From the sequence record KY608965.1: 64,000 nt of DNA. The stretch is one strand, 5' to 3'. The notes under the pieces were generated by a model that was given only the letters and a program-made list of their open reading frames with translations, was not told the DNA's origin and did not search any database. Origin of the DNA: Escherichia phage phiEC1. Each line of letters opens with the position of its first letter. The stretch's first letter is position 1. The position numbers and the translations under genes were made by a program. Below, one piece after another: positions 38,542 to 45,005 of the stretch.

Positions 38542-38571
38542 ATAGTATCACACATCCATGTGTTTGTAAAC
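38542..38571 (-). promoter_or_regulatory. Early promoter overlapping the alt stop codon
   Basis: On - strand GTTTAC-N18-(GGATGTGTGA)TACTAT. Confidence 0.65.
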
Positions 38572-40658
38572 TATCCTTGGACAAATTTAAACGGAACTGA
38601 TTCTAAATCCATTAAAGATGCTAACAATTTCAAACCTTTAGGTGCACTAGTTTTTTCTACAAATGAGGAGAACGATACCGGCTCATCTGATTCGATTTCA
38701 CCCGTCATAGCAACCACCTCGCCTGTTTCCATGAGAACATCGCCATCATAAATGACGGCTTCATCCAACTGGTCTGAGGACATGACTTCAGCTTGAATAA
38801 ATTTAAGGTTGGATTCTAAACCTGCACCAGTATCAGATGACGCATCTGTAATTTTATTTATCTGCAAGAGAATGCCTCTAGGCAAAATAATTTCTTGCTC
38901 ATTAGGGTGATTACTCAACTGTCCTGGATAAATCACGTTAACTTTATGGGCGCCATCAATAGCCCATCCAACGTTAACACGGATTTGTTCTGGTGCATGC
39001 ATAGCTGTTCTTACTTGACTAGGAGAAATAGTAACACCTTCGTCATTATTGTCAATGTTAAGCTCTTTGCGAACTTCTTCAGGAGCAAGTCCAAGGGCAA
39101 CGTTCTCTTTAAACCCGCCAAAAATAATAGGAGCTAGTGAAGTGGAAACATAGTTTCTGAAGTAGAATACCTTATTTTTAACCATTGCTTCATAAATAGG
39201 CATTCTGATAGACTGGGCTCTATACAACGTTAGTCCTTCAGGTAAACGGTCTCCATTTAAAAACGCCGAATCAAGACCATCAATAGCGCGTTTAACTTCA
39301 TCTTCATCTGCAACATCGTAAAAATCTGGTTTATAACGACCTAACAACATATTATTGATATCGGTATACGCAGAAGAGGCATATTCACGAATAGCTCGTT
39401 TTTCAGCAACAGAGTATTGTTTAGGGTCCCGATTCATTGTTATATTAAAGGTGCCTCTAGCCGATTCTCGTGCATAAGTATACATCACATTAGACAAGAA
39501 CGCTGATTTACGTTGTTTCCAAGTTCTTTCAGATACTTCAGCTAAAACATCGTCAGGCAGTTGGAAATTATCACGTCTAAAATCTTCAAACCATTCGTCT
39601 CTAATAGAGTCTGCAATTTCGTTTGCAGCTTCAACAAAAGCGGCTAATGCTTTAACAGATGTTGTTTTTTCAGTTTTAATTTTCTTAGCAAACTTTTCTA
39701 AAGTTGGCTTAATAACACTGCCATAAGAAACTTCATCAGCAAATCTAAAGGATTCATCAATACGATTATAAATCTTATTTTCGATATCAGCAACTAAAGT
39801 GCCTTTTGCTGTGGACGATGCTTGGGCTAGTACGATTTCATATGCTTCAGGAAGTAATTCAGCTGTAGCTGGGCCACTAACTTCTTTAGCAGAATTTTCG
39901 TATTTCTGGAATAGCTCACCTTCTTGGCGGTCAGCTTCTAAAGATTGACTTGCTGCAATAGCGCGACGAGAAATTTTAGTACGAGCAATAACAGGCTTAT
40001 CTTTACGTTTTTCTTCTACAGCAGCAATAGAACCAGCGATAGCCGTTTCTTTGGTGACCTTTTCGCCAGTCTTTTTACTCACATAAACTTCACCAACATC
40101 AGAATCTACTTTCGTGTACAACTCTGTGTTAATGTTAGGGATGCCTTTAATATCTTCAATGTTGGCATTTTTACGAACCATCATCACATAGGTGTGTTTA
40201 CCTGTGAATTGATACATTGCAGACAATACTTTAAAACGACCACCAGTTTTAGTAGAAACTAAACGAGCAAGAAGAGTTTGAAGTTGTTGTCCACGTCCTT
40301 TCAATTTCTTAGTAGGGAATCGGAACAAAACTGCATCCATACGAAGAGCTTTAACCTGTTCATACACTGTATTGAAAATGGTGTTGATTGCATCAATAGG
40401 AGCAGGACCAAGACCATTTTTCAATTCGGCGAGATTACCCTTTTCAGAAAGACTCATAATAACGACATGAGCGTATTTGTCACCAAGTTTAACTTGTTTT
40501 ACAGCATCTCCTTCGGAAAGGTAAGAGAATAAACGAACTACGATGTTTGTATCGATATCACCAATTTTCCAGACTTGTGGAACTTTAGCTTTAGGGTTCA
40601 AATTGACGACAGGAAGACTGCCTTCAGATTCAAACACTTCATTTAATTGTTCAGACAT
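38571..40658 (-). CDS. alt: Alt ADP-ribosyltransferase (packaged, modifies host RNA polymerase)
   Basis: 695 aa; ART-type R / S-T-S / E motifs (LTLYRAQ…VSTSL…EQEIILPRG); C-terminus …PFKFVQG; synteny next to gene 54. Confidence 0.9.
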   Translation of the reverse strand: MSEQLNEVFESEGSLPVVNLNPKAKVPQVWKIGDIDTNIVVRLFSYLSEGDAVKQVKLGDKYAHVVIMSLSEKGNLAELKNGLGPAPIDAINTIFNTVYEQVKALRMDAVLFRFPTKKLKGRGQQLQTLLARLVSTKTGGRFKVLSAMYQFTGKHTYVMMVRKNANIEDIKGIPNINTELYTKVDSDVGEVYVSKKTGEKVTKETAIAGSIAAVEEKRKDKPVIARTKISRRAIAASQSLEADRQEGELFQKYENSAKEVSGPATAELLPEAYEIVLAQASSTAKGTLVADIENKIYNRIDESFRFADEVSYGSVIKPTLEKFAKKIKTEKTTSVKALAAFVEAANEIADSIRDEWFEDFRRDNFQLPDDVLAEVSERTWKQRKSAFLSNVMYTYARESARGTFNITMNRDPKQYSVAEKRAIREYASSAYTDINNMLLGRYKPDFYDVADEDEVKRAIDGLDSAFLNGDRLPEGLTLYRAQSIRMPIYEAMVKNKVFYFRNYVSTSLAPIIFGGFKENVALGLAPEEVRKELNIDNNDEGVTISPSQVRTAMHAPEQIRVNVGWAIDGAHKVNVIYPGQLSNHPNEQEIILPRGILLQINKITDASSDTGAGLESNLKFIQAEVMSSDQLDEAVIYDGDVLMETGEVVAMTGEIESDEPVSFSSFVEKTSAPKGLKLLASLMDLESVPFKFVQG

Positions 40659-40716: not shown

Positions 40717-40902
40717 ATCCACAATCGGAAGCAAAGTACGATAAACTTCAAAATTAGGGCCTTTTTCGTACTTATCAAAATTGTCCATAAAAATATTATA
40801 AGAATCGTTATTAGGAAAATCTAATATAATCTGAGAGCAAGAGGTGGAAACATCTCCACCATCCTTCTTAGCTACAATAACTGTTTCTAAATAAGCTTTC
40901 AT
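40714..40902 (-). CDS. Hypothetical protein translationally coupled to DNA ligase
   Basis: ATG at 40902 overlaps ligase stop (TAATG); 62 aa; followed by terminator hairpin. Confidence 0.5.
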   Translation of the reverse strand: MKAYLETVIVAKKDGGDVSTSCSQIILDFPNNDSYNIFMDNFDKYEKGPNFEVYRTLLPIVD

Positions 40903-42395
40903 TATAAACCTGTCTGGGACCACGGTCCGAATACGTCTTCAAATGAATCCGCTTCTGTTTTATCAAAACGGAACCCTTTAATAATTGGAAGGAAAATACC
41001 TACAGTACCTTCACGGCCTTTAGAATGAACCCAACCATTACATTCGCAATCAGCAATACGTCCAATCAATTTACCTTCACGAGCTTCAGCCATTAATCGT
41101 TCACGGTCTAAATCATGACGCTCATCTAAAGGAATAAGAACCTTTACACCATCAACTGTTTTATGAGTTGTATCTTTAAACCCTGAACCACAATCGGTTG
41201 TAATACGACGACAACGTGATACGAGTTCGACACCACCTAATTTGTTAGGGTCTTTAGAGTGTTCGTAGTATCCTACAACTTCTAAAGCGATATCAATAAC
41301 TTCTTTAAATTTAATTAGGTTCTTAGAGCGTTTGTTTTCCCAATATGAATCACGGTTTTTAAGGATAATACCTTCAAGACCTTGGTCAACATATTTTTTA
41401 TAAACCACTTTAGCTTCGTCAAGATTACGAACTAACTGATTTTCAATTGGCTCAATTCGCTTAAAGCCTTCAGCCATATTTTCAAGAGCAGCAAAACGAA
41501 CATCGTATTTCTGACCTTTAATTTTGCCATCAGAATAGACTTCATCTAAAGGAACATAGTCCCAGGCTTGAAGAACCATACCTTCCGCTTCTTTAGGAGA
41601 AATAGTCCCTTGAAGAGATTTATTTGCTAAACCGTTTGAAGTGCTACGGTCTGCAACTTGTACTTCTTCAGATTCTTCATTATCACCAAATAAGAACGAC
41701 AGGTCATTTCCTGAGCTCACAGCCTTTTTAATATCAAATGAATGATAAACCAATTCACCGTCGATTAAAACCCCATTAGGGTGTTTTTCACGGGCTTCTT
41801 TAGTCATTTCCATTAGTTCATCTGCTAATAGGGTAAGACCATGGTATTCATTACCAGCACGAGAAAAGAATTGAACACCGTCATCACGAACTTCAGCGAA
41901 ACAACGAGCACCATCTGCTTTTAATTGAGCAAATGCAGGCCATTTAATATTTTTAGTAATCAATTTCTCGTCATATGCAGATGCTAACATCTGCGGTTGC
42001 AATTGAATAAGTCCAGGCCATACCTTATTCGCGATAGACACTGAAGCACCTACTTCAAGGTCTCGCATCATTACACGACGTAGTACTTCTACATCATCAG
42101 GTTTACCGTCAGCGATATAACCCATGAGCTCTTTAATTGCTGCATTACCAGTGAGCTTACGAGTGGCTAATGTGAACTCAATAAAATCCAACATGTCATC
42201 TAATTCAAGAAGGCCATACGCTTGAGACCTTTCACCTGGTCCTGGCCATTTCTTAATATAATACTGAATGCCACGTGCATACGTTAAACGATATACACGT
42301 TCAAGTAATTTGTTGTCCTTATTTTTCTTAAGGATTTCCTGTTTTGTTTTAGTAGAACCGATCGCAGCTATTTGGTTTAAAATATCTAAAATCAT
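40902..42395 (-). CDS. 30: ATP-dependent DNA ligase gp30
   Basis: 497 aa; adenylation motif KADGARC; matches recalled T4 ligase. Confidence 0.95.
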   Translation of the reverse strand: MILDILNQIAAIGSTKTKQEILKKNKDNKLLERVYRLTYARGIQYYIKKWPGPGERSQAYGLLELDDMLDFIEFTLATRKLTGNAAIKELMGYIADGKPDDVEVLRRVMMRDLEVGASVSIANKVWPGLIQLQPQMLASAYDEKLITKNIKWPAFAQLKADGARCFAEVRDDGVQFFSRAGNEYHGLTLLADELMEMTKEAREKHPNGVLIDGELVYHSFDIKKAVSSGNDLSFLFGDNEESEEVQVADRSTSNGLANKSLQGTISPKEAEGMVLQAWDYVPLDEVYSDGKIKGQKYDVRFAALENMAEGFKRIEPIENQLVRNLDEAKVVYKKYVDQGLEGIILKNRDSYWENKRSKNLIKFKEVIDIALEVVGYYEHSKDPNKLGGVELVSRCRRITTDCGSGFKDTTHKTVDGVKVLIPLDERHDLDRERLMAEAREGKLIGRIADCECNGWVHSKGREGTVGIFLPIIKGFRFDKTEADSFEDVFGPWSQTGL

Positions 42396-42670: not shown

Positions 42671-43486
42671 TTAACAATTTATAGACCAAGTCCATTTGGA
42701 CGAATCTAAAGGAAAGTTTTGAATCGTCCACCATGGCTGCATATCGGTTGGTCCTGGAGTTCGCCAAGTATACGGATTCGACGGAGCGCCAATTTGATTA
42801 GGCCATGCACCTGGGCTTGTTGCACCTGATTCTTTAAGCAAATCCGCCAATCGTTTTAAAAGGTCTTCACGATCTGAATCTGAATTATGCTCAGGTGGAA
42901 TCAAACGAGATTCAATATCATCCCACGTGTGTACACGTTGTGCAGTGCGAGGAATATCATCACGTTCACCACGAGCCAACCAATAAATCGGTACATTAAG
43001 AATTTCTGCCGCATGGTCACAATGATGAGCTAAATCGTCAACGTAACAAATTACGTTATATTTTGTTTTAGCTAGTTCGAATAATTGTTCCTTTGAAGAA
43101 TCATGACCACACATCATTACTTCAGAGAAAGCGCCTGGGAACAAAGCATTCAAATTAAATTGTCTATTCAATCGAGCATCAATTGAATCACCTAGCGCCG
43201 TCACGGCTACAAAATTATAGTCTTCTTTTAGTTTATTGATAACTCGAAGAGCATCAGAATAAGGCGCTAAGTAACGAATAAAATCAGAGCTATTATATTT
43301 TTCTATTAATTGTTTACCAAGGTTATCGTCGGTATTGAACAGTTTACCAGGAGAAATAAATTTTTCGTCCTGAATCATTTTTAAAATATGTTCTAATGGA
43401 AGATTATATTTTTGGGCAAAATAAGGAAGTCCAGATTGCCAACTTAAACATACACCATCAATATCAGTCAAAATAGTAGGCTTCAT
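42671..43486 (-). CDS. HAD-superfamily hydrolase-like protein with Trp/Pro-rich C-terminal extension
   Basis: N-terminal HAD motif I ILTDIDGV, later hhhDD motif ICYVDDLAHH; ATGA overlap with upstream ORF. Confidence 0.6.
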   Translation of the reverse strand: MKPTILTDIDGVCLSWQSGLPYFAQKYNLPLEHILKMIQDEKFISPGKLFNTDDNLGKQLIEKYNSSDFIRYLAPYSDALRVINKLKEDYNFVAVTALGDSIDARLNRQFNLNALFPGAFSEVMMCGHDSSKEQLFELAKTKYNVICYVDDLAHHCDHAAEILNVPIYWLARGERDDIPRTAQRVHTWDDIESRLIPPEHNSDSDREDLLKRLADLLKESGATSPGAWPNQIGAPSNPYTWRTPGPTDMQPWWTIQNFPLDSSKWTWSINC

Positions 43487-43941
43487 AAAGAGTCTCTTAA
43501 TAGGTTTAACACATCAACAAATTCAGTTTCGGTTAGTATTGTATCATCTTTTGTTAGGTGGCTAGCCATGCTGTGCTTCAAAATTTTTCCTTTAGAGGCT
43601 TGTAAGGCATCACGAAATCCCTTATTTTGGATCGCTGCTTCAAAATATGCATTTGTGTATAATTCTTTCCACGCTTCAGAGTATCTTGAAAATGGAACTC
43701 CCAACCAGAAGAGGGTCCCACGGTCCTGAGCTCTTGCATAAGACCTTCCAGCTTGTTGGGCGGCAAGCCCGGATAGTCCAAATATACGTCTTTGTTGTTC
43801 AACATTTTTCACCTTACATCCTTGGAGAAACCCTTCAAGACCTCCGAATTGAATACCGTCCATAACAAAAGGCCATTGAGCAAAGTTACTTAATGCACAT
43901 GACGGCCACTTAAAATTACTTCTTATTTCTAATTCAGACAT
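43483..43941 (-). CDS. NADAR/YbiA-like (DUF1768) domain protein, putative ADP-ribose processing enzyme
   Basis: Motif …LSNFAQWPFVMDGIQFGGLEGFLQGCKV… resembles the YbiA/NADAR core (SNFA-WP…DG…E…Q-K); start taken at first ATG, a GTG at 43950 is also possible. Confidence 0.5.
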   Translation of the reverse strand: MSELEIRSNFKWPSCALSNFAQWPFVMDGIQFGGLEGFLQGCKVKNVEQQRRIFGLSGLAAQQAGRSYARAQDRGTLFWLGVPFSRYSEAWKELYTNAYFEAAIQNKGFRDALQASKGKILKHSMASHLTKDDTILTETEFVDVLNLLRDSL

Positions 43942-44149
43942 CTTTAACACTTATAATTTCAACATCAGCCCAATGACCATAACCAGGTATACGATCTTCG
44001 ATAGATAAATTTCCGTCATTTTTAGGTAGTTTAATCGATGTGATATACGGTTCTAAATGGTCTTCTGTATGCGGAGAAACATCTGTCACACGATAAGTAA
44101 CTTCAACCATTTCCGTACCAAACAATTTCTGGATTAGTTTATTCAACAT
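43934..44149 (-). CDS. Hypothetical protein
   Basis: 71-aa ORF with ATG, overlapping neighbours in an operon-like array. Confidence 0.5.
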   Translation of the reverse strand: MLNKLIQKLFGTEMVEVTYRVTDVSPHTEDHLEPYITSIKLPKNDGNLSIEDRIPGYGHWADVEIISVKDV

Positions 44150-44360: not shown

Positions 44361-44391
44361 ATTATACTCTAATCCGTCCTTGGATGTAAAC
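44361..44391 (-). promoter_or_regulatory. Candidate early promoter
   Basis: On - strand GTTTAC-N19-TATAAT; long spacer lowers confidence. Confidence 0.4.
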
Positions 44392-45005
44392 TACTTAACG
44401 AAATTAATTTCTACCGGATGAACAACAGGTTGAGCAGTGATATATTGAGTAATTGCTTTCATGACTAGAGCTTCAGAACCAGGATTTTTCTCAACGAATT
44501 CACGTGCTTGGTTATGAGCTTCAAGTTCACTTAGTAAACCACTTCGTTGGCATCCACGGTCTTGAGTACCCTGTTCAGATAAAAAGACGACGATGTATTT
44601 TTCATCGTCATAAGATTTAGACGGTTGAGCAAATGTTCCTTTACTTCCGAAAGGAGAGTTATGACGCCACATCACGCCGTGAGGAGTTTCAACCTTCGTA
44701 TATTCGTGCGGGCCATTTTTCTTAATTTCTTGATGTGGAACTTCATGGACCTTAGGGTTAGGACATTCAATAAAATGCTCGTCTAAATCGGTCGAGAATA
44801 TTAAAGTAAAACAATTACTGAATTTACCAACACCTGCCTGATAAATTTTACCTTCAGAAGTTCTAATTTCACAAACTGAGCCGGCATCAGTAACTTCTAA
44901 AACTTCAAAAGGCTCGATAAGGTCATATGAGAACATGTTTTTAAGGCGTGGAGTAATATCCCCATTTTTAAAATTCATTTTATAAAAAGTATTAACTTTA
45001 AACAT
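44391..45005 (-). CDS. Hypothetical protein
   Basis: 204-aa ORF with ATG; His-rich central region; GC hairpin upstream. Confidence 0.6.
   Translation of the reverse strand: MFKVNTFYKMNFKNGDITPRLKNMFSYDLIEPFEVLEVTDAGSVCEIRTSEGKIYQAGVGKFSNCFTLIFSTDLDEHFIECPNPKVHEVPHQEIKKNGPHEYTKVETPHGVMWRHNSPFGSKGTFAQPSKSYDDEKYIVVFLSEQGTQDRGCQRSGLLSELEAHNQAREFVEKNPGSEALVMKAITQYITAQPVVHPVEINFVK

Follow-up and report, generated by a model that had tools for sequence, protein, structure and literature searches.

Does an early gene pair in a T4-like phage, in which a NADAR-like gene overlaps the gene for a HAD-like hydrolase, encode a single functional unit? The initial annotation of the window (the whole 64,000-nucleotide stretch of Escherichia phage phiEC1 DNA that we analyzed, record KY608965.1) proposed that the pair, located near the ADP-ribosyltransferase gene alt, could be a module for processing ADP-ribose or NAD metabolites or for countering host defense. 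We therefore examined the identity of each gene, the surroundings of their homologues in other phages, and published transposon sequencing data for T4.

Organization of the locus

ORF listing and translation revealed two ORFs on the minus strand, at 42671..43486 (271 aa) and 43483..43941 (152 aa, counted from its ATG; an in-frame GTG is located at 43950, 9 nt upstream of this codon). At the minus-strand junction between them, which reads CTCTTTATGAAGCCT, the stop codon TGA of the 152-aa ORF shares bases with the ATG of the 271-aa ORF (ATGA, 4 nt), which confirms the overlapping arrangement described initially. The window belongs to a T4-like (Tequatrovirus) phage, and the 1.9 kb around the gene pair are 97.6% identical at the DNA level to the E. 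coli O157 typing phages 3, 6, and 13. By comparison with the annotated T4 record, the 271-aa ORF is T4 gene 30.2 and the 152-aa ORF is T4 gene 30.3. Homologues of the two proteins are found in 1438 and 1510 phage records, respectively, and this distribution, together with the DNA identity to the typing phages, indicates that the gene pair is not a chance occurrence.

The early genes of the region are tightly packed on the minus strand, and rising coordinate is the reverse of the order of transcription (Table 1). The alt and ligase genes, reported initially as neighbors of the pair, do lie close to it, and both are downstream. Stop/start overlaps of 4–11 nt are found at four of the five junctions from the ligase gene to 30.5 (lig/30.1, 4 nt; 30.2/30.3, 4 nt; 30.3/30.4, 8 nt; 30.4/30.5, 11 nt), and the ATGA overlap of the pair is thus of a kind that is common in this gene string. 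The 59-aa and 82-aa ORFs listed near gene 31 are probably 30.9 and rIII.

Table 1. Features of the gene string around the 30.3/30.2 pair, in order of rising coordinate
Feature	Coordinates	Strand	Description
alt	38571..40658	-	PF03496; downstream of the pair
alt.1	between alt and the DNA ligase gene	-	
ATP-dependent DNA ligase	40902..42395	-	PF01068; downstream of the pair
30.1	between the ligase gene and 30.2	-	DUF3045
Gene 30.2, residues 201-271 and stop	42671..42886	-	Extra helix (202-219), then Trp/Pro-rich tail predicted to be disordered
Gene 30.2, residues 1-200	42887..43486	-	HAD-superfamily core with helical C1 cap (cap ~residues 13-75); predicted Mg-dependent phosphomonoesterase
ATGA stop/start overlap, adfN/30.2	43483..43486	-	Read directly from the sequence; like overlaps at three other junctions
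adfN (orthologue of T4 gene 30.3)	43483..43941	-	NADAR-superfamily DNA ADP-ribosylglycohydrolase (152 aa; phage gp30.3 subfamily); PF08010, function from T4 experiments
H123 codon of AdfN	43573..43575	-	Invariant in the 68-sequence family alignment; marks phage gp30.3-type NADARs
K43 codon of AdfN	43813..43815	-	Catalytic lysine; invariant in the 68-sequence family alignment
E36 codon of AdfN	43834..43836	-	Catalytic glutamate; invariant in the 68-sequence family alignment
30.4, 30.5, 204-aa ORF, 30.7, 30.8, 59-aa ORF, 82-aa ORF, gene 31	above adfN, in this order	-	

The best sigma-70-like promoter match of the region (44361..44390, minus strand; TTTACA, an 18 nt spacer, and TATAAT, 11/12) sits in a 54-nt gap upstream of 30.5. 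It is a plausible early promoter of 30.5-30.4-adfN-30.2-30.1-ligase; promoter-like sites as a whole are no more numerous here than expected from shuffling, and the site is to be read as a consensus match only. Next to it, in place of T4 gene 30.6, is the 204-aa ORF (44391..45005, minus strand; PHROG 17531, listed as "unknown function"; no Pfam match), which was present in only one (L001, 97% identity) of 158 viral-contig loci and looks like a variable insert of the island.

The NADAR protein

T4 gene 30.3 was renamed adfN (anti-DarT factor NADAR) by Johannesman et al. (Nat Commun 2025; PMC11825919), whose work established that T4 AdfN is a guanine-ADP-ribose DNA glycohydrolase that defeats DarTG1. 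T4 needs adfN for resistance to DarTG1, and ectopic adfN is sufficient to rescue RB69; purified AdfN alone strips ADP-ribose from DarT1-modified DNA; and the T4 protein is impaired by the substitutions E36A and K43A and by C-terminal truncation, the C-terminal helix being the part that is missing from the inactive RB69 allele (PMC11825919). Guanine-specific de-ADP-ribosylation in vitro was also reported in an independent study (PMC11125620). The reversal of DarT guanine ADP-ribosylation to which the initial annotation referred is therefore correct, but it was published for T4 AdfN in 2023–2025 (PMC11825919, PMC11125620): the NADAR gene and its anti-DarT role are already known, having been discovered and characterized in those years as AdfN.

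The 152-aa protein of the window is identical to T4 gp30.3 (NP_049816) at 145 of 152 positions (95%), and its gene occupies the same place between 30.4 and 30.2. It matches PF08010 (Phage_30_3) with 231 bits (cutoff 36; E 4.5e-69) over model positions 1–138 of 138. Its AlphaFold model (built with 68 homologues; pLDDT 93) has the NADAR alpha+beta fold, and a Foldseek search of the PDB with this model returned, at probability > 0.9, only E. coli YbiA (2b3w, TM 0.68), the Phytophthora NADAR with ADP-ribose (PnNADAR, 8bau), and the Geobacter DarT-associated NADAR (GlNADAR, 8bat), with no other significant match. The NADAR assignment made from the motif LSNFAQWPFVMDGIQFGGLEGFLQGCKV, which begins at residue 17 as reported, is thus upheld. 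The profile that had been suggested for checking it, PF08719 (NADAR), did not match the 152-aa protein at E <= 1, and PF08010 matches instead; one member of the family (P0066) carries both. We place the protein with the NADARs, PF08719 being unmatched, because of its fold and the literature.

The substitutions relative to T4 number seven (for example, K11R, E89P, M125I, and H128G). E36, K43, and H123 are shared with T4 AdfN, as is the predicted fold, and the C-terminal helix (residues 138–151) is present and intact in a protein of the full 152 aa that has no frameshift. H123 directly follows the last strand of the model (residues 120–122). A His at the last strand, replacing the Glu of YbiA or the Asp of DarG1, is a hallmark of the phage gp30.3 NADARs (PMC11125620, PMC11543638). 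The C-terminal half of the protein had been described initially as divergent, and this description holds as a trait of the gp30.3 subfamily (H123 in place of the YbiA Glu); it does not reflect loss of the fold.

The NADAR antitoxins of the DarG1 type that are associated with DarT1 (Geobacter lovleyi 8bat and E. coli C7) and YbiA (2b3w) have the NADAR fold in common with AdfN. Phage AdfN also keeps the Glu and Lys with which these proteins contact the distal ribose, and it shares their chemistry, hydrolysis of the guanine-N2-ADP-ribose bond (PMC11125620, PMC11543638). Apart from the residue at the last strand, AdfN differs from them in size (152 aa, as against 168–219 aa in the DarG1-type NADARs and YbiA). 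Unlike the DarG1-type proteins, phage AdfN has no adjoining toxin gene, and T4 AdfN leaves uninfected cells unprotected against DarT1. It also gives only weak rescue of T5 and Bas25, and it is fully effective only during infection by T-even phages, which led Johannesman et al. to propose that an additional T-even protein is involved (PMC11825919).

We conclude that 43483..43941 is a full-length allele of adfN that is presumably active. Its product would be a NADAR-fold N-glycosidase that removes the ADP-ribose that host DarT1 puts on N2 of guanines in phage DNA, and this removal would restore replication in hosts that carry DarTG1. The mechanism has been shown for the 95%-identical T4 protein, and we infer it for this allele because of the orthology and the conserved catalytic residues. 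PADLOC matched neither AdfN nor the 271-aa protein.

A second reading frame is embedded in adfN. A 75-codon ORF in another frame (43578..43805, minus strand) corresponds to T4 gene 30.3' and matches PF11097 (DUF2883; E 1.8e-41). In 11 homologous loci with 84–98% identical AdfN, this frame is open for 53–75 codons and has the same end position.

The HAD protein

The motifs on which the HAD assignment of the 271-aa protein (gp30.2) had been based were found where they had been reported: ILTDIDGV starts at residue 5 and ICYVDDLAHH at residue 146. The first contains motif I (D8-I-D10-G-V12), which sits directly after strand 1 and in which D8, D10, and G11 are invariant. T96 of motif II ends the strand formed by residues 91–96, K132 of motif III is invariant, and D150/D151 of motif IV end the strand formed by residues 145–150. 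Motifs I–IV are all invariant or nearly so across the family; in 76 remote relatives (20–30% identity), D8, D10, R108, and K132 are invariant, and conservation is 90% or higher at T96 and D151. With all of the catalytic motifs present and the Rossmannoid HAD core fold in the model, the HAD assignment of 42671..43486 is sound. Because the catalytic residues stay invariant in relatives of such low identity, gp30.2 is almost certainly an active HAD phosphatase.

The profile search that had been suggested for this protein did not reach significance: the 271-aa protein falls below every Pfam threshold for HAD families and NT5C, with HAD_2 at 16 bits against a cutoff of 23.8. The family is PHROG 420, which is listed as "unknown function." Approximately 100 gp30.2 homologues have no precomputed Pfam domain, with the exception of a gp30.1 domain (DUF3045; PF11243) that is fused to the homologue P0102, and the longer members of the family (P0209, P0264, P0302, P0252, and others) have no informative extra Pfam domain. 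No mention of gp30.2 was found in the literature that we searched, and a broader search of the HAD, ligase, and T4-like phage literature also gave no relevant result. The gp30.2 family is a divergent HAD family without a curated model.

In the gp30.2 model, five helices (residues 16–72) are inserted right after motif I and before the next core helix, which is the position of a C1 cap. In the classification of HAD proteins, C1 caps go with small substrates, and members that act on macromolecules, such as Pnkp, lack a cap. The open active site of PNKP-type enzymes, with no C1 cap, was not seen in the gp30.2 model. The nearest curated family is NT5C (PF06941), which matches 12 of 61 members of the gp30.2 family and 32 of the 76 remote relatives (best E 4.2e-10); weak matches to HAD_PNKP were found for 3 of the 76. 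Whether queried with the protein alone or with the family profile, the PDB yielded only marginal sequence matches. The only HAD protein among these weak matches was 2jao, a 5'(3')-deoxyribonucleotidase, and in the alignment with 2jao the family-invariant W16 of gp30.2 is paired with the aromatic residue located six positions beyond motif I. The HAD enzymes include the intracellular 5'-nucleotidases, in which aromatic residues of the cap stack on the base (PMC3946280).

Both the helical C1 cap and the proximity to NT5C suggest that the substrate is a small molecule, with a nucleoside or deoxynucleoside monophosphate as the likeliest candidate, and the activity predicted as most likely for gp30.2 is that of a nucleotide phosphomonoesterase. 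As a phosphatase of the HAD superfamily with a helical C1 cap that closes, gp30.2 would act via an aspartyl-phosphate at D8 and use D10 as acid/base; the phosphate would be held by T96 and K132, and Mg2+ by D150/D151. It differs from the cdN/mdN enzymes of NT5C (2jao, 6g2n, and 3bwv) in having an additional helix and a tail that is predicted to be disordered, and its sequence similarity lies below every curated threshold.

T4 gp30.2 (NP_049815; PHROG 420) is the orthologue of the window protein and is encoded in the same place, between 30.3 and 30.1. The two proteins are 70% identical over the 262 residues aligned, and their N-terminal HAD domains are near-identical; from approximately residue 200, the window protein has another, shorter sequence that lacks the C-terminal EYLYNRPT...FQGAF of T4. 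The last ~70 residues of the window protein comprise one helix followed by a predicted disordered tail with many Trp, Pro, and Asn residues (pLDDT is below 50 for residues 227–271), and many gp30.2 homologues are only ~200–220 aa long and cover ~70% of the query. The HAD domain shows much stronger conservation than the tail, which cannot be aligned with that of T4. The tails of other homologues differ as well, some of them sharing a G-I-E-Y-L...Q-P-T motif, and some homologues have no tail.

The relationship between adfN and gene 30.2

The importance of the two genes for growth on DarTG1 hosts can be compared in T4 using the HIDEN-SEQ transposon sequencing tables (Data S6 of bioRxiv 10.1101/2025.11.20.689424). 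On DarTG1, insertions in 30.3 were eliminated (log2FC -7.25, adjusted p 0), whereas insertions in 30.2 (71 sites) were neutral (log2FC -0.12, p 0.61); exactly two T4 genes were significant, 30.3 and its upstream neighbor 30.4, and insertions in alt were neutral (log2FC -0.01) (bioRxiv 10.1101/2025.11.20.689424). Insertions in 30.2 were likewise neutral in either medium (LB or M9) and on RnlAB (bioRxiv 10.1101/2025.11.20.689424). These data come from T4 in combination with a single DarTG1 system and a single host, a setting in which a redundant or conditional contribution of 30.2 would escape detection.

We then considered the surroundings of the two genes in viral contigs. The ligase gene is located just downstream of gp30.2 in 71 of 78 gp30.2 loci, and these 71 divide almost evenly into loci with a NADAR gene within 6 kb (35) and loci with no NADAR gene (36). 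Conversely, a sensitive profile search found a gp30.2-type HAD gene within 6 kb in 23 of 80 gp30.3 loci and none in the other 57. Twenty of the 23 have the ligase arrangement, and the remaining three are about as many as random positioning in a 170-kb genome would produce. At least 10 complete genomes have 30.2 and 30.3 roughly 55–70 kb apart (for example, in a 175,774-bp contig that contains loci L053 and L106). Several distant genera keep the NADAR-HAD-ligase order (35 loci), and in the more distant phages that have this order, 0.7–1.2 kb of other genes lie between the NADAR and HAD genes. Across phages, the HAD gene tracks the DNA ligase gene, not the NADAR gene. Co-occurrence at the level of whole genomes is uninformative because 30.2 and 30.3 are both near-universal in T4-like phages, with the same genus profile.

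We conclude that the pair very probably consists of two separate early genes that are adjacent by happenstance: adfN, and a gene for a HAD phosphatase (30.2) that travels with the ligase gene and is not required for anti-DarTG1 activity. The proposal of a combined NADAR-plus-phosphatase unit linked to alt is not supported, in view of the neutrality of 30.2 insertions on DarTG1, the association of the HAD gene with ligase, the generality of the overlaps, and the neutrality of alt insertions. As AdfN is already characterized and 30.2 is not needed for its job, the finding is largely ordinary: the window contributes one more full-length, presumably active adfN allele. What novelty is left lies in an uncharacterized, conserved HAD phosphatase that is found in ~1400 sequenced T4-like phages and travels with ligase.

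It is highly improbable that the two genes form a functional module, with gp30.2 either supplying the T-even-specific help that AdfN lacks or acting on the released ADP-ribose (for instance, once Nudix cleavage has turned it into AMP and ribose-5-phosphate). The two genes are co-oriented with an ATGA overlap, and the NADAR-HAD-ligase order recurs in 35 loci from several genera, but such junctions are general in the gene string, the HAD gene is absent within 6 kb from most NADAR loci, and 36 HAD-plus-ligase loci have no NADAR gene. The inertness of T4 AdfN in uninfected cells and its weakness for T5 and Bas25 are what suggested an additional T-even protein, and some bacterial systems couple phosphatases, HAD 5'-nucleotidases among them, to ADP-ribosylglycohydrolases (PMC9503650); against this, purified AdfN alone clears ADP-ribose from DNA in vitro (PMC11825919), and 71 sites of insertion in T4 30.2 were tolerated under the selection that eliminated insertions in 30.3. 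The chemistry is also unfavorable. It is well established that free ADP-ribose has no phosphomonoester, and it would therefore offer a phosphatase none to act on. Transposon neutrality, neighborhood counts, and the generality of the overlaps make gp30.2 a poor candidate for the missing T-even factor, and we rejected it as an AdfN helper on the basis of the neighborhood counts and the T4 HIDEN-SEQ tables. A link with Alt was rejected as well: Alt is a protein ADP-ribosyltransferase encoded 3 kb away, insertions in its gene are neutral on DarTG1, and NADARs act on guanine-ADP-ribose. One locus has features that a module would predict. In a distant T4-like contig (L030:4736-6456; IMGVR_UViG_2786546475_000015), a remote HAD protein of the gp30.2 family (26% identity) is encoded 0.7 kb upstream of the NADAR gene with no ligase gene nearby; the gene order is opposite to that of T4, and a single case is compatible with chance.

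Three further readings concern gp30.2 itself. It is very unlikely that gp30.2 is a ligase-linked nucleotidase whose substrate is a nucleotide specific to defense or infection, either derived from the breakdown of ADP-ribose or NAD or a noncanonical dNMP; redundancy would then have hidden its contribution to DarT or NAD-based counter-defense from the single-gene T4 screen, and in the strongest version of this idea, gp30.2 would be part of the T-even factor needed by AdfN. We give equally little credence to a role as a DNA-end or nick phosphatase that, like the HAD domain of polynucleotide kinase/phosphatase, readies 3'-phosphate ends for the neighboring ligase. The ligase gene is immediately downstream in 71 of 78 loci, including those of distant T4-like genera, and a few remote relatives (3 of 76) weakly match HAD_PNKP, but synteny in vertically related phages is weak functional evidence, and in the same transposon screen 30.2 is dispensable and ligase is essential. 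T4-like phages already encode PseT/Pnkp. The helical C1 cap that is predicted to cover the active site would also disfavor DNA ends as a substrate if the link between cap and substrate in the HAD classification applies here, and among the relatives NT5C matches are ten times as frequent as PNKP matches; the cap and this excess led us to down-weight the end-phosphatase role. Finally, gp30.2 could be a catalytically dead HAD-fold factor that binds or regulates, possibly through its variable C-terminal tail. The neutrality of insertions under all four conditions (LB, M9, RnlAB hosts, and DarTG1 hosts) and the length, variability, and disorder of the tail are in keeping with such a role, but it is extremely unlikely given the conservation of D8, D10, R108, K132, T96, and D151 in the remote relatives and the complete absence of the tail from many homologues.

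A separate phosphatase gene, our preferred reading of 30.2, means that gp30.2 is not AdfN's partner, which leaves fewer candidates for the T-even factor on which AdfN depends. Gene 30.4 (43934..44149, minus strand) is the immediate upstream neighbor of adfN, with 8 nt shared at the start of adfN. It is the only gene besides adfN that was significantly depleted on DarTG1 (log2FC -1.79, adjusted p 0.014; bioRxiv 10.1101/2025.11.20.689424), for which the simplest reading is a polar effect on adfN. Among the loci that we retrieved, 30.4 was found only in close relatives of the T-even phages, and as a potential T-even-specific helper of AdfN it is nonetheless more promising than 30.2.
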